DNA of 64,000 nucleotides from an uncultured Phycisphaerales bacterium. Lineage in GTDB: Bacteria; Planctomycetota; Phycisphaerae; Tepidisphaerales; Tepidisphaeraceae. Made by a program: the position numbers and the translations under genes. The notes beneath the pieces were generated by a model. That model saw only the letters and a list, made by a program, of their open reading frames with translations. It did no database searches and was not told where the DNA came from. This document shows positions 7,892 to 21,727 of this stretch, piece after piece. Position 1 is the first letter of the stretch, and every line of letters begins with the position of its first letter. The stretch covers positions 3,456,001-3,520,000 of the forward strand of contig CAVWVQ010000003.1 in the NCBI GenBank assembly GCA_963758525.1, written 5' to 3'.

Positions 7892-7982
7892 TCCCCCTTT
7901 CACAACCCTACTTCTGATCCGTGCCACAATCTGTCGAAACTTCGCGCGCTGCGCAAATGTTCCTGGCCGACAATAAGCCAAA

Positions 7983-9034
7983 GATAAAGAGCCGCGAAGA
8001 CGCGAAGCAGCGAAGACAAACGCGAAGGAAGACAATTCAATTGCACATAAAAGCCAAAGCAAAATCCCGGGGATTCCAGCCCTGCGTTTTCTTACCTTCG
8101 TTTCTGTCTTCGCGCCTTCGCGCCTTCGCGGCTCTTCCTCTTGCGGCTTGCCGCGCTGGGATAAAGAGCCGCGAAGACGCGAAGCAGCGAAGACAAACGC
8201 GAAGGAAGACAATTCAATTGCACATAAAAGCCAAAGCAAAATCCCTGAGCTTCCGGCCCTGGGTTTTCTTACCTTTCGCTTCTGTCTTCGCGCCTTCGCG
8301 CCTTCGCGGCTCTTCCTCTTGCGGCTTGCCGCGCTGGGATAAAGAGCCGCGAAGACGCGAAGCAGCGAAGACAAACGCGAAGGAAGACAATTCAATTGCA
8401 CATAAAAGCCAAAGGCAAAATCCCGGGGGCTTCCAGCCCTGCGTTTTCTTACCTTCGCTTCTGTCTTCGCGCCTTCGCGCCTTCGCGGCTCTTCCTCTTG
8501 CGGCTTGCCGCGCTGGGATAAAGAGCAGCGAAGACGCGAAGCAGCGAAGACAAACGCGAAGGAAGACAATTCAATTGCACATAAAAGCCAAAGCAAAATC
8601 CCTGAGCTTCCAGCCCTGCGTTTTCTTACCTTCGCTTCTGTCTTCGCGCCTTCGCGCCTTCGCGGCTCTTTCTCTTGCGGCTTGCCGCGCTGGGATAAAG
8701 AGCCGCGAAGACGCGAAGCAGCGAAGACAAACGCGAAGGAAGACAATTCAATTGCACATAAAAGCCAAAGGCAAAATCCCGGGGGCTTCCAGCCCTGCGT
8801 TTTCTTACCTTCGCTTCTGTCTTCGCGCCTTCGCGCCTTCGCGGCTCTTCCTCTTGCGGCTTGCCGCGCTGGGATAAAGAGCAGCGAAGACGCGAAGCAG
8901 CGAAGACAAACGCGAAGGAAGACAATTCAATTGCACATAAAAACCAAAGGCAAAATCCCGGGGCTTCCGGCCCTGCGTTTTCTTACCTTCGCTTCTGTCT
9001 TCGCGCCTTCGCGCCTTCGCGGCTCTTCCTCTTG
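7983..9034. repeat. Tandem array of six ~177-179-bp units (last one partial), each holding a long imperfect inverted repeat
   Basis: Units start GATAAAGAGC at 7983, 8160, 8338, 8517, 8694 and 8873; arms AAGAGCCGCGAAGACGCGAAG...CTTCGCGCCTTCGCGGCTCTT. Confidence 0.95.
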
Positions 9035-9068
9035 GGACCTCAGTGTAATCCGTGGTGAATGACCTGGC

Positions 9069-10046: not shown

Positions 10047-11241
10047 CGCGGGGAGTCTAAAAGCCGAGGAGATGAAATGCCAGTGATGACGGCTCATTTG
10101 GGTTCATTGACGTTCATTGACGCGGCGTCAGGCGCAAGCCGGGCTTGCGGAGGGGAATCCAAGGAGGAACTGGCTGCGTTGCGCCGCGCGGTTGCTCGCG
10201 GCCGTCCCCACGGCGATGATCGCTGATCACAGCGGACGGCCAGGGCGCTGGGGACGGAAAGCTCCTTGCGCCCAATTGGCCGCCCGAGGACATCAAAGTC
10301 GCGCAAGAAGAAAGAATGATGCGGATGCCGGAACATTGGCTTATGACCCCTTTCCTCACTCCCCCTTTCCTCACTCTAGCCGTACAACAAAGAGATGCCG
10401 CGCACGAGAGCAGCTTCCGATTCACTTTCTGCTCTTGCCCGTCGCCTCTCTCTTTCCCTTTTTGTGTTTTTGTGTTTTTTGTGGCCATTCGCTGATTGAT
10501 CCCAACGCGCTCGGCCATGGTCTGCGCACATCGTCAATCAGAGTGCGACTTGGTGCTGAACCCGCGGCTGTCCCAGCGGATCTGTTGTCATTGCCTCACC
10601 GTATCATTTTCGCTCGACGCGATGCGACATTGATTGGCCTCCGGCTTCTCCGCTGCCAACGATTCGGTCTGTTCGAGGCGTAGGGTCCGCTCGGCGGCTC
10701 CTAAGGTACGCCTCGAATGGCCGAAAGCGGCGAGCCGCCGTGCGGACCATTCCTCGACTTCCGCGAGAATCCTCGACGGCGCTCTCCGCTGTCCATAATG
10801 AGTTATCCATTCAACCCGTTTCTAACAGCTGTCGCAGACGGTAATCCACCTTGATTGCGTGTGTCCAAAAGCCGACGGATCCTCCGTCGGAACTGCTCTG
10901 CGCCTGGGCCGCAGCCGATGTCTCGAACTCCTGACTCCTGGGTTCCCTCTCCTCTCCTCCGGCCCCGATTCGTGGCGTTGAAACTACGAAATCCCCCGTC
11001 TGCGATGCGACGTTTACTGTCGCCCGAATTTTGCAATCAGGACGTCCAGACCCCAGCTTCCCCCGCAAAGTGGCACGAAGTGGCACATTATTTTCCGAGC
11101 CCGACCGTGCTTTCAGCGGATTTCCCTCCTCGTTTAGCCGGTGGGCATGCCCGCCGTGTCGCCGCAGGCGAACCGATTTCCAAAACCACGCAGTGTCCTG
11201 CGCTATCCGATGCGCCGCGAAAACTTCTAACCGGACGAAAC

Positions 11242-11375
11242 TTGCAACGGCTCACCATCACACATGTCCGGCGATGGGTGGAACATCACCATCGGGTGGG
11301 ATATGGATCGGTCTATCAGGGCCGCTACAAGTCCTTCCCCGTCCAGGACGATGCGCATTTCTCCACGCTGGTGCG
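11242..11375 (+). pseudogene. Fragment of a second, divergent RAYT-like transposase
   Basis: LQRLTITHVRRW..GYGSVYQGRYKSFPVQDDAHFSTLVR aligns with LTNTHVKRY..GHLYQGRYKSFVVQEDGHLLTLLR of the adjacent copy. Confidence 0.75.
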
Positions 11376-11470
11376 AAGCCGGCAGAGGAGATTCCCCTGT
11401 AGTAGCAAGGCCGTCCCGGCTGTGATTCAAAAGCCACAGCCGAGACGGCTGTGCTGCAGCCTGCAGGAAG

Positions 11471-12228
11471 GCTGTTAAGGTGACATCCATCTTTCTTGAC
11501 GATGCTCATCCGCTGAATATATCATGCGGCCAGGCCCCGCACTTCTCGAGCCGCGATCGGCGGTCTGGTTTACCACGTTCTCAATCGCGGCAACGGCCGG
11601 CTGGAGATCTTCCGCAAGCCGGGAGACTTCCTGGCGTTTTGCGATCTGATGGTCGACGCCAAGGAACGGGCCGAGGTCGAAGTGTTCGGCTTCTGTCTGA
11701 TGTCCAACCACTGGCACATGGTGGTGCGGCCGCGTCGGGATCAGGACCTGGCGAGGTACTTCTCCTGGCTGACCAATACGCACGTGAAGCGGTACCGTGC
11801 TCATTACCGTCGGACCAGCGGCCATCTGTATCAGGGCCGCTACAAGAGCTTCGTTGTCCAGGAAGATGGGCATTTGCTAACACTGCTGCGTTATGTGGAA
11901 GCCGATCCATTGCGGGCGAACATGGTGGAGCGGGCGCAGGACTGGCACTGGTCGAGCCTGGGCTGCCAGAAAGAGCTGGCGAGACAACTGCTCGACGATT
12001 GGCCGATCGACCGCCCGCGGAACTGGACGGCGCTGGTGAACGAGCCGATGGATCCGGCCGCCGTGAAACGGGTGGCACTTAGCTTCGAGCGTGGCCGGCC
12101 GCTGGGAAGCGATCCCTGGACCCTGAAAATGGCGGGCCGGATGGGGCTGCAGTACACTCTGAATCCGAGAGGCAGGCCGAAGATGCCGGAAAAAGGCAAA
12201 TAAAAACGGTGGATGTCACCTTAACAGC
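11471..12228 (+). mobile_element. RAYT-like cassette copy 1, bounded by a perfect 19-bp inverted repeat
   Basis: GCTGTTAAGGTGACATCCA at 11471-11489 and TGGATGTCACCTTAACAGC at 12210-12228. Confidence 0.8.
11532..12203 (+). CDS. REP-associated tyrosine transposase (Y1 HUH, IS200-like); start codon reads AGG
   Basis: YHVLNRGN, CLMSNHWH (HUH), QGRYKS, RYVEADP, DWHWSS, RGRPK. Copy 2 has ATG at the equivalent position. Confidence 0.85.
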   Translation, partial: RPRTSRAAIGGLVYHVLNRGNGRLEIFRKPGDFLAFCDLMVDAKERAEVEVFGFCLMSNHWHMVVRPRRDQDLARYFSWLTNTHVKRYRAHYRRTSGHLYQGRYKSFVVQEDGHLLTLLRYVEADPLRANMVERAQDWHWSSLGCQKELARQLLDDWPIDRPRNWTALVNEPMDPAAVKRVALSFERGRPLGSDPWTLKMAGRMGLQYTLNPRGRPKMPEKGK

Positions 12229-12231
12229 TTC

Positions 12232-12472
12232 CCCTGACGCGCATTACGGCGATTGGACGGACGCGGATCCAAAAGTTTGCGATTGCATAACCAGTCAGGC
12301 TAAGCAGAAACAATTCAATAATAACGATAAAGCTGCGTACCGGCTCCTGGGAACGAATAGCAATTGGGCGTCGAAGTGCTACTTAAAGTCATGCTGTGGC
12401 CACGAGTTGGCATTGCCACCAGGGGCGGTCGGGGCGAATGACGGCACTCAATGCCCGAGCTGTGGTTGCTGA
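12232..12472 (+). pseudogene. Probable orphan Cys-rich toxin C-terminal fragment
   Basis: Open frame begins right after the inverted repeat with no credible start; ...CDCI...YRLLGTNSNWASKCYLKSCC...CPSCGC*; visibly more AT-rich; RHS context. Confidence 0.5.
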
Positions 12473-12554
12473 AGATTGGCATCGCGATGTTTTCAAGTTT
12501 CGGTTGGTTCTGTCGTCTACTATAAACGGGTACGAGATAGTTGGAGATGCTGCT

Positions 12555-12890
12555 ATGCTACGCCACCTAATGGGATTGCTGAATGTCGGCGTAATTCTAT
12601 TTGCAGCAGATGCAGGGTGCTGTACTGTTAGCCCCAACCAAGACCAAATTGAGGCATGGGTTCGCACTGAACTGCCGCGGGGGAGTACTGATTCGGACGT
12701 GCGCGCGTTCTGTGTCCGGCATCATTTCTTCTATGATCACAACGTCATGGCCGACAAGACCGGAGTCGAGCTTCTGCGTCCGCTGAAAGGATGTGATAGC
12801 CAGAAGCCAATGGCCACGATAACGGTCACCTACGACGCCGACGGACGACTGGTCGAGGCGGTAACTAAAACATTTGGTCTGACATTTTAA
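12555..12890 (+). CDS. Small exported/lipoprotein-like protein, candidate immunity protein
   Basis: GGAGA RBS, hydrophobic N-terminus ending AGCC, directly after the toxin-like fragment. Confidence 0.55.
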   Translation: MLRHLMGLLNVGVILFAADAGCCTVSPNQDQIEAWVRTELPRGSTDSDVRAFCVRHHFFYDHNVMADKTGVELLRPLKGCDSQKPMATITVTYDADGRLVEAVTKTFGLTF

Positions 12891-12957
12891 GAGGTCATGA
12901 GCGGGATGCAGCTGGTTTTGGAGAAACAGAAGCTGTTAAGGTGACATCCATCTTTGA

Positions 12958-12985
12958 TTGACAGACTTTTTGCCGGAGTTATGAT
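12958..12985 (+). promoter_or_regulatory. Sigma70-like promoter, probably giving a leaderless RAYT mRNA
   Basis: TTGACA-16-TATGAT with ATG 6 nt downstream; copy 1 has TTGACG-18-TATCAT at the same offset. Confidence 0.55.
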
Positions 12986-13303
12986 CCAACTATGCCCCGC
13001 ACGTCCCGCGCAGCTGTCGGCGGGTCTTGTCTACCACGTTCTCAATCGCGGCAACGGCCGGCTGGAGATCTTCCGCAAGCCGGGAGACTTCCTGGCGTTT
13101 TGCGATCTGATGGTCGACGCCAAGGAACGGGCCGAGATCGAAGTCTTCGGCTTCTGCCTGATGTCCAACCACTGGCACATGGTGGTGCGGCCGCGTCGGG
13201 ATCAGGACCTGGCGAGGTACTTCTCCTGGCTGACCAATACGCACGTGAAGCGGTACCGTGCTCATTATCGGCGGACCAGCGGCCATCTCTATCAGGGTCG
13301 CTA

Positions 13304-14224
13304 GGCTCTGTCTGACGGATCGAATGTTCGGCGCTCGTTAGGTATTGCGCGTTCTTCTATGATCGTCATGATGTTCTCCACATGGAGGACAGATGGCGCA
13401 CTACGAACTCACGGATGATCACTGGAACCTGATCAAGGCACTTTTCCCCGTACAAAAACGTGGCGGACGATGGAACGACCACCGCATCACGCTCAATGGG
13501 ATGCTCTGGATTCTTCGCTCCGGAGCTCCATGGCGAGACATGCCCGAACGCTACGGGAAATGGAAGAGCGTCTATGATCGCTTCAACCGCTGGCGGCGCG
13601 AAGGCTTCTTCGATCGCATCCTCAAAGCACTGCGGATTCGACTCAACAAGGAGGGCAAGATCGATTGGGATCTCTGGCTCGTCGACGGCTCCAATGTGCG
13701 TGCTTCTCGCGCTGCCGCCGGGCGCGCAAAAGGGGGCGCGGCCTCGACTTCGAACCGGCCGACCACGCGCTGGGCCGCTCGCGCGGCGGATGGGGATCAA
13801 AGTTCCACGTGGTTACTGACGGAAAGGGCCTTGTGCTCGCCGTCACCGTTACCGCGGGGCAAACGCACGAATCCACGCAGCTCCACAAGGTGATGCACGC
13901 GGTGCAGCACCCCTGCACATCGGCTGGCCGGGGAAGATCGCGGGCGACAAAGGGTACAGCTACGAAACCGTTCGCCAGTTCCTGGCCGATTGCGGGATCG
14001 AAGCCGTCATCCCGCGCAAATCCAATCAGCCACGACCAAAGGGCGAGCGATTCGATAAAAGCAGCTACCGCAAACGAAGCCGCATCGAGTGTGCTATCGG
14101 ATGGCTCAAGGAATGTCGTCGGCTGGGAACACGCTATGAGAAGCTGGCTCTTAACTTCTTGAGCTTCGCCAAACTCGCTATCATGCTGAAATACCTGAGG
14201 GTTCTCGATCCGTCAGACAGAGCC
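13304..14224 (+). mobile_element. IS5-family insertion sequence (IS427-like), 921 bp
   Basis: 20-bp terminal inverted repeat GGCTCTGTCTGACGGATCGA; TA duplication at 13302-13303 and 14225-14226. Confidence 0.92.
13393..14224 (+). CDS. IS5 DDE transposase spread over three frames (shift at AAAAGGGGG 13728-13736, second shift near 13925)
   Basis: ELTDDHW, WILRSGAPWRDMPERYGKWKSVYDRFNRW, VDGS, LGRSRGGWGSKFH, AGDKGYS, YRKRSRIE, RRLGTRYEK. Confidence 0.85.
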
Positions 14225-14697
14225 TACAAGAGCTTCGTTGTCCGGGAAGATGGGCATTTGCTGACACTGCTGCGTTATGTGGAAGCCAATCCATTGCGGG
14301 CGAAGATGGTGGAGCGGGCGCAGGACTGGCACTGGTCGAGCCTGGGCTGCCAGAAAGAGCTGGCGAGACAACTGCTCGGCGATTGGCCGATCGACCGCCC
14401 GCAGAACTGGACGGCGCTGGTGAACGAGCCGATGGATCCGGCCGCCGTGAAACGGGTGGCACTTAGCTTCGAGCGTGGCCGGCCGCTGGGAAGCGATCCC
14501 TGGACCCTGAAAATGGCGGGCCGGATGGCGCTGCAGTACACTCTGAATCCGAGAGGCAGGCCGAAGATGCCGGAAAAAGGCAAATAAAAACGGTGAATGT
14601 CACCTTAACAGCTTCCTGAATCCGAGAGGCAGGCCGAAGATGCCGGAAAAAGGCAAATAAAAACGGTGAATGTCACCTTAACAGCTTCCCCACGCTC

Positions 14698-17600
14698 GTG
14701 GCGAAGTACGGGTACGACGGCCGGGGCTTCCGCATCGTCAAGAAAACCTACACGTCTGGCACGCTCTCCGAAACCCGTGATTTCTACTTCACCAGCAACT
14801 GGCAGAGCATCGAAGAGCGGGTCGGCGGAAGTATGGTCGATCAGCACGTCTGGGGCGTCCGTTTCATTGATGAACTGGTCTGCCGCGACGATGCTACGCC
14901 CCAACGCCTCTACGCCATGCAGGATGCCAACTTCAATCTGACGTGCATCAGCGATGCCAGCGGCATTGTCGTCGAACGATACGTATTTGATCCGTACGCA
15001 AAGCGTGCTATTTTGAGCAGCTCGTGGGGCCTCATCTACACAAGCAGCTATGGATGGGTGGTAGGATTTCAAGGACTCAACTACGATAATTTTAGCAACG
15101 CGATATACGCAAGAAATCGATATCTTCACCAGCTAGGACTTTGGCTGAGCCGGGATCCTCTGAAATCTTCAATGGAGCGTAATTTATATCAGTATATCAA
15201 CAGTAATCCGTTGAAATACGTTGACCCAATAGGGCTACAAGCTGGTCCAACAAAACAGCCGACGACACGGCCATCGCTCATTCCGCCACAACATGTTCCG
15301 GCGGAGGACGACCCCAAATGCGGCGTCACTCTTAATCAAAGGAAAGAAATCGGCGGACACGAATGGATCGGTATCGATTTGGGTGTTCCAGGCCAGTTGC
15401 CTCTCGGTGCGGGATTTTGGCCCTCCGGTTGGCAAACGTGGGAACCAGCACGCAAAACTCAATCCGTAATTGGAACCGAGCAAGGGGAATATTCGAAGGC
15501 CGGCGATCCCCAAACAGGCTGGGGAGACCCATACGCGGGATCCACCCATTTGACTCGCAGCCGCGCACATCAGACGCTGACCTACGCAGTGAACGTGAGC
15601 ACCGGAGACGTCGGAAACGCCTTGATTGGAAACACCTGGTACGACCCCTCGGGAAATGTTCTGCAGAGCATCGGCGAGGGAGCCGGCAAAGTCTTCACCA
15701 AGCAAACCTACAACGGCGTCGGCTGGGTGATGTCCAGCTACCGCGGTTACAACACGTCGGGCGTCAGCTACTCGCAAGCGACGACCGTGTCCGGCGATAT
15801 CATCGTCGAGCAGAAGGACAACACATACGACGAAGCGGGGAATATCGTCGGTTCCGCAATGAGTCAGCGGCTCAACGACGCGCCTGCCAGCGGAACGGGA
15901 AGCACGGGCGCACTGTCGTACAGCAGCGATCCCAAGGCCCGCGTCTCGTACACGGCAAGCTGGTTCGACGGAGTTGATCGGGGAATCGCGAGTGCCAACT
16001 ATGGCGCAATCGCGAGTTTCACCCGGCCCAGTACACCGCCTTCGTCTTCGGCGTCCGTTCTTGTCACTTCAACCGCGTACGATGATGCCAGCCGGCCCTA
16101 CCAGGCGACCGACCCGATGGGCGTCCTGAACCAGACCGGCTTCGACAACGCCAATCGAACGACGCAGACAACCGAGGACCTCGGCGGGCTCGCACGCACC
16201 ACGAACTTCACGTACACGTTAGATAACCTGATCCGGACGATGACAGCGGTGAACTCCAGCACCGGCGACCAGACCACAACCTGGGTGTACGGCACGACAC
16301 TGGCAAATTCCGGCGTCGCCCGCAACGATCTGCTCCGAGCGACGATTTATCCCAACACCGATCTTTCGTGGGCGACACTGACCGCCGATCAGTGGACGAG
16401 CCTCACCGCCGCTCAGTGGGCCTCCCTACGGGCATATCCAGTGGATACGACATTCGCGAACTACAATCGACTCGGCGAGCAGACGACCTTCACCGATCAG
16501 CGGAGAGCTGTCCGGACCTTCACGCGCAACGCGCTTGGCCGGCAGACCGATGATGGCGTCACCACGGTCGGCGCGAATACCGACAGCGCGGTGTTGCGGA
16601 TCAGTCGCGCGTACGAAATTCGCGGCTTGGTCTCGATGATCACCAGCGCCGATAACGCCACGCCCGGCGCTGGCACGATCCTCAATCAGTTCAAACTTAC
16701 GTACAACGATTTCAGCCAGCTCAGCAAAGATGACCAGGAACATTCCGGCGCAGTCGGCAGTTCAACACCGAGTGTGCAATACGGCTACGACTCCGGCGCT
16801 TCGAGCTCGAATCAGGTTCGATTGAATCGCTTGACTTACCCGAACGCCCGCCAGATCACCTATAGCTTCGGAACCTCTGGCGGCATGAGCGACTACCTGG
16901 GCCGAGTGGAGGACATCATCGACACCACCAGCGGAAGCACGACGCTGGCGCAATATCTGTACGTTGGCGCAGGCAAGGTCATCCGAATCACCTACCCCGA
17001 GCCCGGCGTCTGGCTGGATTTGTGGGGTGGAACCTCGGGAACTTTCGCCGGAATCGATCTCTTCGGAAGAATCATCGACCAGCGCTGGCAGAACAACATC
17101 GCCAGCACGCCAGGCGATATCGACCGCTACAAATACGGCTACGACCAGAACTCCAATCGTCTCTGGAAAGCCAACGTCGTCGGCACCGCCGCCATGACCG
17201 CGGGACTCGACGAGTTCTACGTGTACGACCCTCTGAATCGCCTTACCGAAATGCAGCGGGGTGTACTCAACGGCACCCAAACGGGCATCACGGGAACGCC
17301 AAGCATCGAGCAGGACTGGACACTCGATCCCACCGGCAACTGGGCCAACTTCACGACCAAGGCCAGCGGAACGACGGATCTCGATCAAACCCGCACTGCG
17401 AACACTGTCAACGAGATCACCAACATTACAGAAAGCACCGGCCCGACCTGGGTCGTCCCGGCATACGATGCGGCGGGTAATACAATAACGATGCCGCAGC
17501 CGGCGAGTCCGACGAACAGCTTTGCCGCCGCATACGATGCATGGAACCGGATGGTCAGCATCAATGATTCAGCAAATCCGGTCGGTAAGTATCAGTATGA

Positions 17601-18759
17601 CGGCCGGAACTTCCGGATCGTGAAGAAAACATATACCTCGGGCGTGCTCTCGGAAACTCGCGATTTCTACTTCACGAGCAACTGGCAGGATATCGAAGAG
17701 CAAGTCGGCGGAAGCATGGTCGATCAGTACGTTTGGGGGATTCGCTATATCGACGAACTGGTCTGCCGCGATGATGCCACGCCGCAACGGCTATACGGCA
17801 CACAAGACGCAAACTTTAATCTAACGACCGTTACCGACAGCACCGGGACCGTAATTGAACGTTATCTATTTGATCCGTACGGCGTTCGAACGGTCATGAA
17901 TGCTTCATGGAGTATTTCGGGCTTCAGTAGCCATGCATGGCGCATAGGATTTCAGGGCTGGTACGAAGACGCAGAGAGCGCCCTGCAAAATGATCGAAAT
18001 CGTGTGCTCAGCGCGCTCATCGGTTCATGGCTGCAGCGAGACGACCGATACCGCCAAAACGCAAGCCTTTACTCTCTTGAGGGGAACTCCCCCATCGGCC
18101 GGCGAGACCCAACCGGCCGCGACTACTATTCCGACTCGGGCTTTGCGGGCCAGATTTCCCGCGACGAGTTTAACGAGCTGCGCGCGATCATCGAGAAGCA
18201 AACTGGCGAGGCGCATGGTTACGGGAGCGGCGTCGATACCGTAAGTGCCCTGTATGCTACGCAAGCTTTAGGATGGGACGTCAGCAAGCTCTCAGCCGCA
18301 CAGATATTTAAGTTCTTTCGGGAAGAACTGTCGGTACAGGCTGCTATGAACAACGCGTGGAACAAGAGCCTCGCAAACGATCCGGCGATACTTTGCTACC
18401 TCAATTGCAAGAAGAAGTCACTCGCGGGAGCGGCTGGAGTTGGAGGCCTCGGTGGTGCGCTTCCGAATCTTCCCTATTTCCCCAAGGTGTTGTCGTACCC
18501 ATTCCTGGATCCAGGTTCCTACGCCGACTATTTGAAGGGAGGGCCGATTGGAACATTACGCACTGCCGTAGCGGCAGTCGCCGAGCAGTTTGGGTTCGAT
18601 GGCGTATATGAGTCGCTGATGGCCGGACGCGGTCTCGCTCTTGTGCGCGGTGGGACGAGTCCGTTCCTCGCGTATGGCGGTGCGGGTGCAATCGAGGGAG
18701 CACTCCTCCTTGTCACATCGCTGTCGATATACTGCTCCCTCAAATGCCGCTGCAAATGA
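14698..18759 (+). CDS. Chimeric, N-terminally truncated RHS/YD-repeat polymorphic toxin with two core ends
   Basis: YD repeats; NPLKYVDPIG (D at 15223) and SPIGRRDPTG (D at 18106); duplicated core block at 14704 and 17587. Confidence 0.88.
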   Translation: MAKYGYDGRGFRIVKKTYTSGTLSETRDFYFTSNWQSIEERVGGSMVDQHVWGVRFIDELVCRDDATPQRLYAMQDANFNLTCISDASGIVVERYVFDPYAKRAILSSSWGLIYTSSYGWVVGFQGLNYDNFSNAIYARNRYLHQLGLWLSRDPLKSSMERNLYQYINSNPLKYVDPIGLQAGPTKQPTTRPSLIPPQHVPAEDDPKCGVTLNQRKEIGGHEWIGIDLGVPGQLPLGAGFWPSGWQTWEPARKTQSVIGTEQGEYSKAGDPQTGWGDPYAGSTHLTRSRAHQTLTYAVNVSTGDVGNALIGNTWYDPSGNVLQSIGEGAGKVFTKQTYNGVGWVMSSYRGYNTSGVSYSQATTVSGDIIVEQKDNTYDEAGNIVGSAMSQRLNDAPASGTGSTGALSYSSDPKARVSYTASWFDGVDRGIASANYGAIASFTRPSTPPSSSASVLVTSTAYDDASRPYQATDPMGVLNQTGFDNANRTTQTTEDLGGLARTTNFTYTLDNLIRTMTAVNSSTGDQTTTWVYGTTLANSGVARNDLLRATIYPNTDLSWATLTADQWTSLTAAQWASLRAYPVDTTFANYNRLGEQTTFTDQRRAVRTFTRNALGRQTDDGVTTVGANTDSAVLRISRAYEIRGLVSMITSADNATPGAGTILNQFKLTYNDFSQLSKDDQEHSGAVGSSTPSVQYGYDSGASSSNQVRLNRLTYPNARQITYSFGTSGGMSDYLGRVEDIIDTTSGSTTLAQYLYVGAGKVIRITYPEPGVWLDLWGGTSGTFAGIDLFGRIIDQRWQNNIASTPGDIDRYKYGYDQNSNRLWKANVVGTAAMTAGLDEFYVYDPLNRLTEMQRGVLNGTQTGITGTPSIEQDWTLDPTGNWANFTTKASGTTDLDQTRTANTVNEITNITESTGPTWVVPAYDAAGNTITMPQPASPTNSFAAAYDAWNRMVSINDSANPVGKYQYDGRNFRIVKKTYTSGVLSETRDFYFTSNWQDIEEQVGGSMVDQYVWGIRYIDELVCRDDATPQRLYGTQDANFNLTTVTDSTGTVIERYLFDPYGVRTVMNASWSISGFSSHAWRIGFQGWYEDAESALQNDRNRVLSALIGSWLQRDDRYRQNASLYSLEGNSPIGRRDPTGRDYYSDSGFAGQISRDEFNELRAIIEKQTGEAHGYGSGVDTVSALYATQALGWDVSKLSAAQIFKFFREELSVQAAMNNAWNKSLANDPAILCYLNCKKKSLAGAAGVGGLGGALPNLPYFPKVLSYPFLDPGSYADYLKGGPIGTLRTAVAAVAEQFGFDGVYESLMAGRGLALVRGGTSPFLAYGGAGAIEGALLLVTSLSIYCSLKCRCK

Positions 18760-19064
18760 TCGGCGCCGTGAAACCGCCGACGTGCTTTGGCTCGAAGGGT
18801 CCGGTGATGGGAATTGAGCACATTGACATGGCACGAAGACTGGAGAGCCGGCTCGCGGTGTCGCGTCGCGAGATTTGGGCCGACCCTCCGCCGAGGACCT
18901 TTGGCGAACTCTATTCAAATCTACGTCGATTGCCACAACTGGCGTCGGTGCCAGATGAATTATTATGGGAGGCGATCATCCAATCACTGCGCGGCACCGT
19001 GCATCCTCTGATTCCTCACATAGACGAGAATACAGAAATTGACGATATTCTCTCAGGACTATAA
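18756..19064 (+). CDS. Small protein, candidate immunity protein (start may be 18807)
   Basis: ATGA overlap with the RHS stop; position directly after the toxin tip. Confidence 0.5.
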   Translation: MIGAVKPPTCFGSKGPVMGIEHIDMARRLESRLAVSRREIWADPPPRTFGELYSNLRRLPQLASVPDELLWEAIIQSLRGTVHPLIPHIDENTEIDDILSGL

Positions 19065-19104
19065 CACTACGAAACCTGGGTGAGGAAAGACTGCTATGGA
19101 TGAA

Positions 19105-19134
19105 AACTTCTAATGGGACGTCCCGTTAGAAGTT
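19105..19134. repeat. 30-bp near-perfect palindrome; half-sites recur at 11219-11237 and 19380-19390
   Basis: AACTTCTAATGGGACGTCCCGTTAGAAGTT. Confidence 0.8.
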
Positions 19135-19367
19135 CTGCCGCCGAAAGATGGGAAGCGGCGCTTGGGATCCGGTAGAGCAGGCCTCGTATGCCTATTACGG
19201 CGCTTCGGACGCCAATGGCAACGTCAACGATCTTCAGTCCGCCTCCCGCCAGCTTCCCGATGGCTCGGGCGGGTGGAACACCGTCGCGGTGGAGTATGAC
19301 CGCTATTACCTGACCACCGCGGGCACCGGCATCGTTCACGGCCTGAAGATGCACTTCGGCACCGCAA
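19135..19367 (+). pseudogene. Probable RHS N-terminal/middle fragment
   Basis: QASYAYYGASDANGNVNDLQSASRQ...YDRYY...HGLK, RHS-like composition; no credible start. Confidence 0.6.
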
Positions 19368-19700
19368 AAGAATTGGACCCGTCCCGTTAGGCGATTCCGA
19401 ATACGTAAAATTCTGTAAAGTTGTGTAAACCGAACCGCTGATTCCGAGCGACAAACAAGGGTTGACCGCCCGGCGGTCACTGGCGTTGTCCCGGATTGTA
19501 AAGCGGGCTGTTTGCTATGATCCCCTTTCCTAACCCCGGCGGTCCGCCGGCGGGGCGGGATGACGGTGACCCCGGAACATAGGGAGTGAATCTACCCGCA
19601 GACCGCTTGGCGACGGTTGTGAAAAAAACGTCTCGCTATGCTGGCCTGCGGGCAAGTGGTTCTTCTTGACCTCCCAATCGGCGCACATTACGGTTTGATC

Positions 19701-21391: not shown

Positions 21392-21434
21392 TGTGCTTCC
21401 TCAACAGAGCTCCAGCAGGGCCAAGCCGAAAACT

Positions 21435-21650
21435 AAAGAGCCGCGAAGACGCGAAGACAGACGCGAAGAAGAAGGAGAGTAAAAAAAAGCGATTTCCACG
21501 GCTCGAGGGCGACGGGGCCCGCTTCCCCAGCGTTGAAAGGATCTCCTCCGCGCCATCTTCAGTCTCGCGCAGCTTCTCGTTTTCGTAACATGATGTTTTT
21601 CGATCTTCCTTCGCGTTTGTCTTCGCGCCTTCGCGTCTTCGCGGCTCTTT
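21435..21650. repeat. Solo inverted-repeat pair of the same family as the 7983-9034 array, with a different spacer
   Basis: AAAGAGCCGCGAAGACGCGAAG...CTTCGCGTCTTCGCGGCTCTTT. Confidence 0.85.
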
Positions 21651-21696
21651 GCTTTTGTTTTTTCCGGCAGTGCGACAATCAGGACCACTCGCGCAA

Positions 21697-21727
21697 ATCA
21701 AAAGTCCACGAAGCACGCTTCGTGGAC
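21697..21727 (-). terminator. Probable intrinsic terminator after rpsG
   Basis: 11-bp arms GTCCACGAAGC/GCTTCGTGGAC followed by TTTTGATTT on the minus strand. Confidence 0.65.

Follow-up and report, generated by a model that had tools for sequence, protein, structure and literature searches.

The window analyzed here, 64,000 nucleotides from the genome of an uncultured Phycisphaerales bacterium (G000; GenBank GCA_963758525.1, contig CAVWVQ010000003.1), contains an island in which the terminal inverted repeats (TIRs) of TIRtrons abut truncated RHS toxin genes. TIR ends of several TIRtron families are joined to sites in the middle of genes, with no similarity and no fixed target duplication, and on balance we favor one-end transfer by the TIRYT enzyme as the route by which this would have happened. 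Judged from sequence comparison, the single-strand cutting enzyme of the element likely stitches fragments of toxin and predicted immunity genes together, with no similarity needed.

Identity of the repeated element

The initial annotation had taken the transposase in this region for a RAYT and the repeated ends for its REP sequences. The enzyme is instead a TIRYT, a Y1/HUH transposase encoded between TIRs in an element called a TIRtron (available text of PMC3733652), not a REP-associated enzyme, and the two motifs are the TIRs of two TIRtron families. A reading of the motifs as integron attC or Xer dif sites was dropped because both are TIRs of TIRYT genes. The protein matches PF01797, a Y1 transposase family with HuH and Y---NP motifs, which read NHWH and YVEANP in intact copies; the HuH (H59, H61) and Y120...N124 residues are conserved in 75 aligned proteins, and the closest fold match of the TIRYT model is TnpA-REP 4ER8. 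No Pfam helix-turn-helix family matched a C-terminal extension, where the model shows helices at 174-209. Four intact family-A copies lie elsewhere in the genome, with more than a dozen copies or fragments in total, and TIRs are present at 89 of 106 near-complete TIRYT matches (duplicates included). Compared with the GGGGWSAS motif, which according to the available text of PMC3733652 occurs in the majority of TIRs but not all, family A reads GGTGACAT, family C GGGGTCAT and family D GGGGACGC; these are near matches, and some relatives match exactly. The TIRYT here probably falls in subclass 2.1 of the TnpA-Y1 enzymes (Quentin et al. 2018, PMC6006769).

Other element classes were considered and rejected. 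Membership of the REPtrons (strict RAYT) was ruled out by the multicopy state, a REP-like hairpin at one end only and NF047646 scores of 59-64 against a cut-off of 80. For IS200/IS605, the TIRs are symmetric and the parents of the joined sequences have no common target word; for a classical DDE insertion sequence (IS), there is neither a DDE transposase nor a fixed-length target duplication. An integron or rAID-1 assignment was excluded by the HUH enzyme and by breaks within genes in all frames; the co-directional, low-G+C cargo of those systems is present.

Architecture of the island

The island spans 8 kb and is nested in a TIRtron-B relic, which is uninterrupted at C1:319906-319407 and C3:4264750-4265246. 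These within-genome copies were used in place of an empty site in relatives; G001 and G002 are too distant for an empty-site comparison, with synteny broken on both sides. The features are as follows.

10154..10359, plus strand: 3' remnant of TIRYT family C that retains the right TIR, part of which is repeated immediately outside (81-85% to C1:205785-205989 and C3:2876582-2876779; TIR-C match at 10338-10355)
10386..11086, unstranded: dispersed non-coding repeat, more than ten genomic copies, often beside TIRtrons
11219..11376, plus strand: left part of a TIRtron-B deletion derivative, with outer left TIR and TIRYT residues 77-122 (91% to positions 28-448 of the uninterrupted C1 copy; tblastn)
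11387..11458, unstranded: GTAG-type REP-like hairpin with many genomic copies, adjoining this single TIRtron end only
11467..12232, plus strand: TIRtron-A copy 1, with left TIR, promoter-like site (11496-11525), TIRYT gene and right TIR
12230..12472, plus strand: 80-aa distal half of a C-terminal RHS toxin domain, with the break at the TIR (protein matches)
12396..12890, plus strand: candidate immunity gene, intact, its role predicted from position
12929..14615, plus strand: second TIRtron-A copy, into which IS5 has inserted, with a promoter-like site at 12958-12985
13302..14226, plus strand: IS5-family element, a simple insertion at TA that splits TIRtron-A copy 2; nine genomic copies at at least 99% identity
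14616..14688, plus strand: 73-nt direct repeat of the right end of copy 2 itself
14689..15555, plus strand: RHS core, truncated at the 5' end and running to DPxG at 15237, then a toxin tip that breaks off near 15555
15556..18759, plus strand: RHS middle-to-end piece with toxin tip (residues 897-1751 of P0002, 71%)
18744..19064, plus strand: small downstream ORF, candidate immunity gene by position
19102..19135, unstranded: head-to-head pair of family-B TIR outer halves, collapsed; a palindrome with no gene (inverted repeat, motif matches)
19136..19360, plus strand: N-terminal RHS piece (residues 187-260 of full-length RHS type P0004, 70%)
19364..19398, plus strand: right end of the TIRtron-B derivative, including the right TIR (35 nt, 97% identical to the uninterrupted copy at its positions 760-794)
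19398..19515, unstranded: portion of a different dispersed repeat, starting in the middle of its sequence at the TIR-B end; 11 other copies have a different common upstream sequence

The TIRYT gene of copy 1 lacks the start codon of the intact copies and reads YVEADP. The repeat at 10386..11086, for which an Rfam search gave zero matches at gathering score, is a left scaffold common with a sister island at C3:302787-303687 (93%), which has the same scaffold and different cargo. The two halves of the B relic could derive from two copies.

Most boundaries fall where the initial annotation had placed them. The toxin-like fragment was said to start at the copy-1 right repeat, and there, at 12230, an 80-codon frame with no start of its own opens; it aligns at 84% with the stretch 90-169 of a 169-aa protein, and at 39-41% with the C-terminal domain of two proteins that have an RHS core, which makes it the distal half of a toxin tip of RHS type. 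The candidate immunity gene had been annotated as stopping about 40 bp ahead of the copy-2 left repeat; its end is at 12890, and 38 nt separate it from the repeat at 12929. Homologs of the 12230 toxin and of the 12396 gene are each recorded on 1551-nt contigs, presumably the same contig. One protein, P0143, is 97% identical to the product of the 12396 gene. The truncated RHS core had been placed at the copy-2 right repeat, and its homology does begin at 14689, 4 nt past the motif end; the junction described near 15560 as having no motif lies at ~15556, where the following piece is fused in frame to the preceding tip. A match at 11227 agrees with the variant of the second motif reported before the TIRYT relic. 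The same motif was also said to bracket 19135-19367, and this is correct on the left, in the form of the collapsed head-to-head TIR pair at 19102-19135, but not on the right, where the break at 19360 lies ~37 nt inside the family-B right end.

Features of RHS orphan arrays in the window comprise a core with DPxG, a toxin tip and a small downstream gene. A search of G000 (91% complete) for a full-length gene of this RHS family found none, and none lies upstream in the window. No junction in the window gives a full-length RHS gene a new tip. Pfam contained zero family for any toxin or immunity candidate in the window, and an Atlas search on these candidates gave leads only.

Joins at TIR ends

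Motif A occurs five times in the window (11471+, 12210-, 12932+, 14594- and 14667-; zero expected from 100 shuffles) and 31 times in the genome. The second motif, CGTCCCGTTAG, has five matches in the window at no more than one mismatch, including 11227, 19110/19119 and 19380, against 0.93 expected. At 14689, 19136 and C3:305668, RHS-family pieces break off within 1-4 nt of the outer end of a TIR. The motifs are non-randomly placed with respect to RHS pieces, a TIR end lying within 4 nt of 3 of the 12 boundaries of six RHS-family pieces in G000 (chance 4.5e-4 each). The proposal that the ends act as recombination sites for toxin cassettes stands as regards non-random RHS break points, but neither as regards specificity to toxins nor as a route of RHS tip exchange. 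Across 31 of 31 matches the four bases that follow the motif core hardly vary, with randomness reached by the sixth, and some joins show microhomology of 1-3 nt.

Joins land within genes in all three reading frames. TIR ends also cut ordinary genes (IS, DUF4058, DUF899, DUF4159 and glycoside-hydrolase genes), and the joining process is not aimed at toxins alone; most TIR ends elsewhere adjoin other DNA, RHS lying at only 14 of 251 flanks. The cassette flanks do not rejoin into one ancestral gene, with zero pairs of reciprocal halves among 24 flanks (10 left and 14 right), and no fixed target duplication was found, direct repeats occurring between flanks in 3 of 73 cases versus 57 of 1444 shuffled pairs. 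At L011 the TIRtron is flanked by an 18-nt target repeat, as a plain insertion would be. Copies of 11-233 nt of the element's own terminus are borne by 44 of 156 ends; none were seen in the 25-nt flanks of the nine IS5 copies. By hand count, the base right after the join is C or T in 41 of the 44 self-repeats, a lead only, biased by microhomology and the pyrimidine-rich TIR. Promoter-like sites occur in both left ends (copies 1 and 2), such patterns being at chance level in the region, and a -35/-10 pattern occurs in 22 of 80 left ends only.

Recurrence in relatives

The architecture was found again in independent assemblies: the same RHS-TIR join, always co-directional, occurs in at least four other genomes (G001, G002, G016 and G013) and in a metagenome contig. 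The scan for TIR ends used 31 TIR cores and missed ends known otherwise, so its counts are a lower bound and not a census. An independent RHS protein, P0148, opens with the translation of a fifth TIR family, and by a quick tree the TIRYT-RHS link recurs in at least five TIRYT clades. Across three arrays in G002, five of seven RHS orphan pieces begin in TIRtron DNA, three of them exactly at the outer end; two begin with no TIR, one of these behind a DDE transposase. RHS sequences lie within 1.5 kb of 14 of 251 TIRtron flanks versus 1 of 400 random windows, and are co-directional in 14 of 14 cases (10 loci). A crude coding-strand score, supportive but weak, called 49 flanks co-directional versus 24 opposite, with 65 uncalled. 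The GC skew of C3 is too flat for replichore assignment of the strand bias. We found no literature linking TIRYT or RAYT to RHS, most subscription journals being outside the search.

Comparison with known systems

As in the available text of Di Nocera et al. 2013 (PMC3733652), the elements here have a Y1/HUH gene between TIRs instead of REPs, several TIR families per genome, and solo as well as paired TIRs. Unlike the present case, the available parts of that paper and of PMC6006769 give no mechanism, one-ended joins, end self-repeats or cargo; class 2 is reported, in the text available, as low in copy number, whereas here there are many copies, 85-98% identical. PMC3733652 names cutting and joining of single-stranded DNA at the TIR as a subject for later work. 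E. coli TnpA-REP and its REPtron (PMC3333891) share the fold and the HuH/Y---NP motifs; that enzyme cuts and rejoins single-stranded DNA at low-specificity sites distant from its anchor, and the tandem amplification models proposed for it fit the end repeats seen here. It differs in being anchored on GTAG REP hairpins, single copy and not self-mobile, and in acting on REP arrays, not coding DNA.

The picocyanobacterial tnpA-REP/procA system (10.1101/2020.03.09.984088) likewise combines subclass 2.1 enzymes and many C-terminal fragments with a diversifying peptide-gene family, and was proposed as a diversifying recombination route, a causal claim that its authors later withdrew. Its genes face each other at a fixed distance, with no inverted repeats found and small-indel diversity, whereas here the cuts are intragenic and the genes co-directional. 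The rAID-1 poly-immunity clusters and integrons (10.1101/471110) also place co-directional immunity-like genes of low G+C downstream of a recombinase gene, with repeats in between, but use a XerD-like tyrosine recombinase and whole-gene units; here we see an HUH nuclease, mid-gene breaks and repetition of the element itself. RHS/CDI orphan toxin-immunity arrays, in the available text of PMC3150448, share truncated cores with DPxG, tips, small downstream genes and frequent IS interruption. In contrast to them, the window has no upstream full-length gene, its modules begin at TIR ends at variable places, and some begin past the RHS core, where no homology for tip exchange remains.

Origin of the joins

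The likely reason that TIR ends are joined to the middle of unrelated genes is cleavage of single-stranded DNA by TIRYT at the TIR foot, with transfer of just that end to a target site of low specificity. If, as we infer, each end acts alone, repeated events would yield end repeats, one-sided deletions and uptake of other DNA pieces. Uptake of outside DNA is likewise inferred, and no donor locus of any toxin piece was seen in G000 (91% complete). The motif-less joins (15556 and 19360) could reflect exchange between two distal cuts, as demonstrated in vitro for E. coli TnpA-REP (PMC3333891). Toxin tails with an intact downstream gene would accumulate as harmless, possibly protective cargo readable from the element's putative promoter, which would also account for the shared orientation. 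Homology-free one-ended joining would then build patchwork islands, with selection retaining immunity genes.

A rather unlikely alternative, and the one that survives best, is plain selfish insertion into older RHS orphan arrays that the cell could spare; adjacent deletion and recombination among nearly identical copies would have followed, with no capture. Such deletion and recombination often erase the target duplications of IS (available text of PMC11708052), but recombination between copies predicts the reciprocal halves that are absent among the 24 flanks. IS often disrupt orphan cdiA-CT genes (available text of PMC3150448), in G001 and G002 long RHS genes precede the TIRtrons, and other IS are located near RHS about as often (RHS-core proximity 10/89 for TIRYT versus 5/101, p=0.18, among the matches listed, 150 of 167 for TIRYT). 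Yet the island sits inside a TIRtron relic with empty copies elsewhere, and the G001 and G002 orthologs of two genes flanking it have no RHS or TIRYT found beside them. The succession of tail, immunity gene and next RHS head is normal array order; however, of 18 distinct family-A right ends, ~11 are followed by tail plus small-gene cassettes, at seven dispersed locations (manual reading), with no full-length gene of this RHS family found in G000.

We consider improbable a domesticated, integron-like capture system, in which TIRYT would be kept for collecting toxin tips and immunity genes, the TIRs would be attachment sites and the element promoter would drive the cargo. Intragenic joins in all three frames, the cutting of ordinary genes, and a multicopy element that decays like an IS speak against it, as do genomes that have RHS cores with no TIRYT match at E 1e-8 (among the matches listed, 15 cores in G021, 14 in G030, 11 in G025 and 7 in G024). 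It is favored by the co-directional, low-G+C cargo (8 of 14 right flanks have G+C <0.55; genome mean 0.61), by gene-less mini-TIRtrons directly preceding RHS orphans in G002, and by recurrence of the link across five or more TIRYT clades. On short metagenome contigs, family-A relatives also often adjoin FN3 pieces and toxin-like tails (read by eye), and another tail forms the C-terminal domain of no fewer than 26 of the 27 longer homologs, some WXG100-like.

Host repair, in which paired TIRs form hairpins that break and are patched by microhomology, appears very improbable as the maker of the joins: the TIRs are able to pair across the element, some joins carry the 1-3 nt microhomology, and IS entry into pre-existing breaks has been proposed (available text of PMC11708052), but the joins are fixed at the TIR foot and the catalytic residues of TIRYT are conserved. 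Assembly chimeras at repeated TIRtron copies are hardly credible even in a genome that is probably metagenome-assembled (90.9% complete, 6.1% contamination), since a repeat-borne chimera swaps flanks and cannot cut a gene at the repeat's edge, and these edges recur in four further genomes as well as in short, unrelated contigs.

Implications

TIRYT enzymes are members of what is probably the second-largest Y1 subclass; subclass 2.1 is present in 14.9% of strains (available text of PMC6006769), and the available parts of PMC3733652 and PMC6006769 give no mechanism or role for it. The locus defines the likely cut position of the enzyme and the effect of its ends on neighboring DNA, and the four intact natural family-A copies are material for an assay, an example of an intact TIRYT being C1:316008-316772. 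A bolder and doubtful extension is that TIRtrons are an HUH-based gene-capture platform, whose ends would take up random foreign toxin-locus fragments, keep immunity genes under the element promoter and seed new RHS orphan modules with no homology. If true, this platform would parallel integrons and rAID clusters at the level of single-stranded DNA, and would give TIRYT enzymes their first function. One-ended joining would provide a homology-free route for the first arrival of orphan toxin/immunity modules, an arrival for which homologous tip exchange does not account.

The transposase genes belong to TIRtrons

The nearest homologs of the transposases and RHS proteins of the source genome (G000; 6.47 Mb, six contigs, 90.9% complete) came from Phycisphaerales and Tepidisphaeraceae records, so the source is probably a Phycisphaerae planctomycete. 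The window spans C3:3456001–3520000 of this genome. The window transposase, initially annotated as a RAYT, matched PF01797 in Pfam; its score fell short of the threshold that NCBIfam sets for REP-associated transposases and inverted repeats enclose each such gene in the window, so the RAYT label gives way to TIRYT, a Y1/HUH transposase encoded between terminal inverted repeats (TIRs). A structure model built from 75 relatives (pLDDT 92.9) gave TnpA-REP (PDB ID: 4ER8) as the best predicted fold match. TIRs were present at 89 of 106 near-complete TIRYT matches in the fetched loci (duplicates included). The element corresponds to the TIRtron/TIRYT that Di Nocera et al. described (PMC3733652, available sections), tentatively equated with subclass 2.1 by Quentin et al. 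(PMC6006769, available sections).

G000 holds at least five TIRYT families, each with its own TIRs. Both motifs that the initial annotation placed at RHS breaks are real, but they are TIRs: the first is TIR-A (31 matches in G000) and the second is TIR-B, of another family, which stands in front of a family-B gene at C3:228095 and terminates family-B genes at C1:319407 and C3:4265246. Both TIRtron-A copies in the window are damaged; among nine A elements checked, four intact copies lie elsewhere in G000. Truncated family-A copies across the genome keep the right end in about eight cases and the left in one or two, resembling the C-terminal fragments reported in picocyanobacteria.

TIR ends bound RHS fragments

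The island and its surroundings contain the following features (window positions).

7900–9060 and 21400–21700: long intergenic arrays of a repeated unit, REP/BIME-like (ORF and repeat lists)
10386–11086: non-coding repeat of ~700 nt, more than 10 copies at 80–94%, repeatedly adjoining TIRtron ends; no match in Rfam; perhaps an unknown MITE, or a passenger that TIR ends carry along
11387–11458: GTAG-type REP-like hairpin family, dozens of copies
12230: frame encoding the distal half of an RHS toxin tip
14689 and 19136: starts of RHS homology, each directly at a TIR end
15556: join with no TIR
19398–19515: part of a second dispersed repeat (11 other copies, C3:469578, 2880295, 228598, 989330, 4612615 and others), entered mid-sequence by a TIR-B end

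The frame at 12230 matches the final 80 residues of the protein P0144 (84%) and the C termini of P0148 and P0151 (39–41%), both of which carry RHS cores; the fragment cut at the copy-1 right repeat is therefore half a toxin tip, in line with its initial description as toxin-like. The truncated core reported directly after the copy-2 right repeat likewise begins at the TIR end (14689), and the motif-free junction noted near 15560 is the join at 15556. Six RHS-family pieces in G000 have 12 boundaries. Three of these are no more than 4 nt from a TIR end and a fourth is 37 nt inside one; a single boundary would fall within 30 nt with a chance of 4.5e-4, so placement is not random. Natural core ends account for two of the remaining boundaries. 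The join at C3:4611864 has no TIR, another repeat element bounding that piece; this RHS N-terminal piece (C3:4611864–4612382) has a direct repeat on its flanks, and a short inverted-repeat element from a different family interrupts it. At least 26 of 27 longer homologs of the tail at C2:453614 carry it as their C-terminal domain.

Recurrence in other genomes

In G001, G002, and G016, 5'-truncated RHS cores directly follow the right TIRs of TIRYTs whose identity to those of the window is only about 45%, with a 154-nt end repeat at the G016 join; in G013 and one metagenome contig, RHS pieces are followed by left TIRs. Across three G002 arrays, TIRtron DNA contains the starts of five of seven orphan RHS pieces, and some modules have gene-less mini-TIRtrons in front of them. 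Those at L087:14220–14315 and L089 near 9000 (left TIR, 45–60 nt spacer, right TIR) stand directly before toxin or RHS modules. P0148, from another record, begins at its N terminus with a translation of TIR-E. RHS lay within 1.5 kb of 14/251 TIRtron flanks versus 1/400 random windows, all 14 co-directional (10 loci, not all independent), and a quick tree spread the RHS-linked TIRYTs over at least five clades. The TIR presence, RHS-flank, mini-TIRtron, and end-scan counts drew in part on two loci from an unpublished genome, G004; no positive claim depends on these two loci.

Simple insertion and array decay

Simple insertion into one ancestral gene, which the initial annotation named as a refutation, does not fit the flanks: no combination of the 10 left and 14 right flanks mapped to neighboring parts of a single parent sequence in the genome, the two flanks of complete A elements were unrelated by eye, and direct repeats between flanks occurred at chance level (3/73 versus 57/1444), with one real case of 18 nt. 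The IS5 within copy 2, one of nine in the genome and the only one near RHS, served as a control, being a clean insertion whose flanks rejoin. TIRtrons also occur in Saccharibacteria records (L009, L011, L023, L163); in L011 the end of the upstream gene is repeated over 18 nt on both sides. At L018, L021, L086:7900–7970, and L087:12070–12122, telomere-like runs contain three to six copies of the outer TIR end. Between two TIR-A-like ends, L136:22–174 holds a fragment that looks like the start of comM.

A ~500-nt family-B derivative is uninterrupted at C1:319906–319407 and C3:4264750–4265246. In the window, its left part extends as far as 11376 and its right end starts again at 19364, with 8 kb of cargo in place of ~310 nt of it, although the two halves could derive from two different copies. 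A sister island (C3:302.8–307.3 kb) shares a 900-nt left scaffold with that of the window (93%) and has cargo of its own: another tail, a small gene, and a piece of RHS that ends 2 nt away from a left TIR. In G001 and G002, the orthologs of the flanking genes had no RHS or TIRYT match next to them. Relic nesting, sister island, and these orthologs together favor accretion rather than the decay of an older array.

Specificity for toxins

With this query set, 237/251 flanks had no RHS match, and the genes that TIR ends interrupt also include IS, DUF4058, DUF899, DUF4159, and glycoside-hydrolase genes; some TIR ends lie at plain gene ends. An RHS core lay within 3 kb of 10/89 TIRYT matches versus 5/~101 other IS matches (p=0.18; five genomes, matches listed, ten split IS5 rows removed). 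Among the matches listed, four genomes with 7–15 RHS cores had no TIRYT match. RHS was found at 0/14 phylum-level loci. Joins occur in all three reading frames, and none puts a new tip on a full-length RHS gene. In other Planctomycetota (L191, L193, L197, L200), TIRtrons directly adjoin the stop codons of housekeeping-like genes, and two of them have self-complementary TIRs. In G000, MqsR/MqsA-like and BrnT-like toxin-antitoxin pairs directly follow right ends of families C and D (L117:2498–3317, L118:4773–5401).

Proposed mechanism and known systems

E. coli TnpA-REP cleaves ssDNA at C^T sites that can lie >400 nt from its anchor, and it also carries out strand transfer (PMC3333891, available sections). 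TIRYT would, by analogy, attach to a TIR, cleave at the foot of that TIR, and exchange the cut end with a loosely chosen site; the sequence before joins reads ...TTC or ...TTCC. Own-end repeats of 11–233 nt at 44/156 TIR ends, including 14616–14688, are what would be left behind if an end were joined to a site a short way upstream. Selection may then retain pieces with a broken toxin and a whole downstream gene, possibly read from the promoter-like site located within the left end.

The closest known systems include the tnpA-REP/procA association (10.1101/2020.03.09.984088) and, from the available sections of each source, the TIRtron itself (PMC3733652), rAID-1 (10.1101/471110), orphan arrays disrupted by IS (PMC3150448), and IS-linked deletions (PMC11708052). 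Our literature search found no paper tying these enzymes to RHS junctions, nor did the available sections of 10.1101/2024.07.17.603846, 10.1101/2021.07.10.451892, and 10.64898/2026.07.13.738213 tie a TIRYT-type enzyme to them; supplements of PMC3733652 and PMC6006769 may list planctomycete TIRYTs. Another parallel is the H-repeat (ISAs1) in the Rhs elements of E. coli. That fragments of toxin loci break at TIRtron ends is real and recurs. The TIRtron was already known but functionally blank, and the tie of its TIR ends to breaks in toxin loci appears to be the new part.
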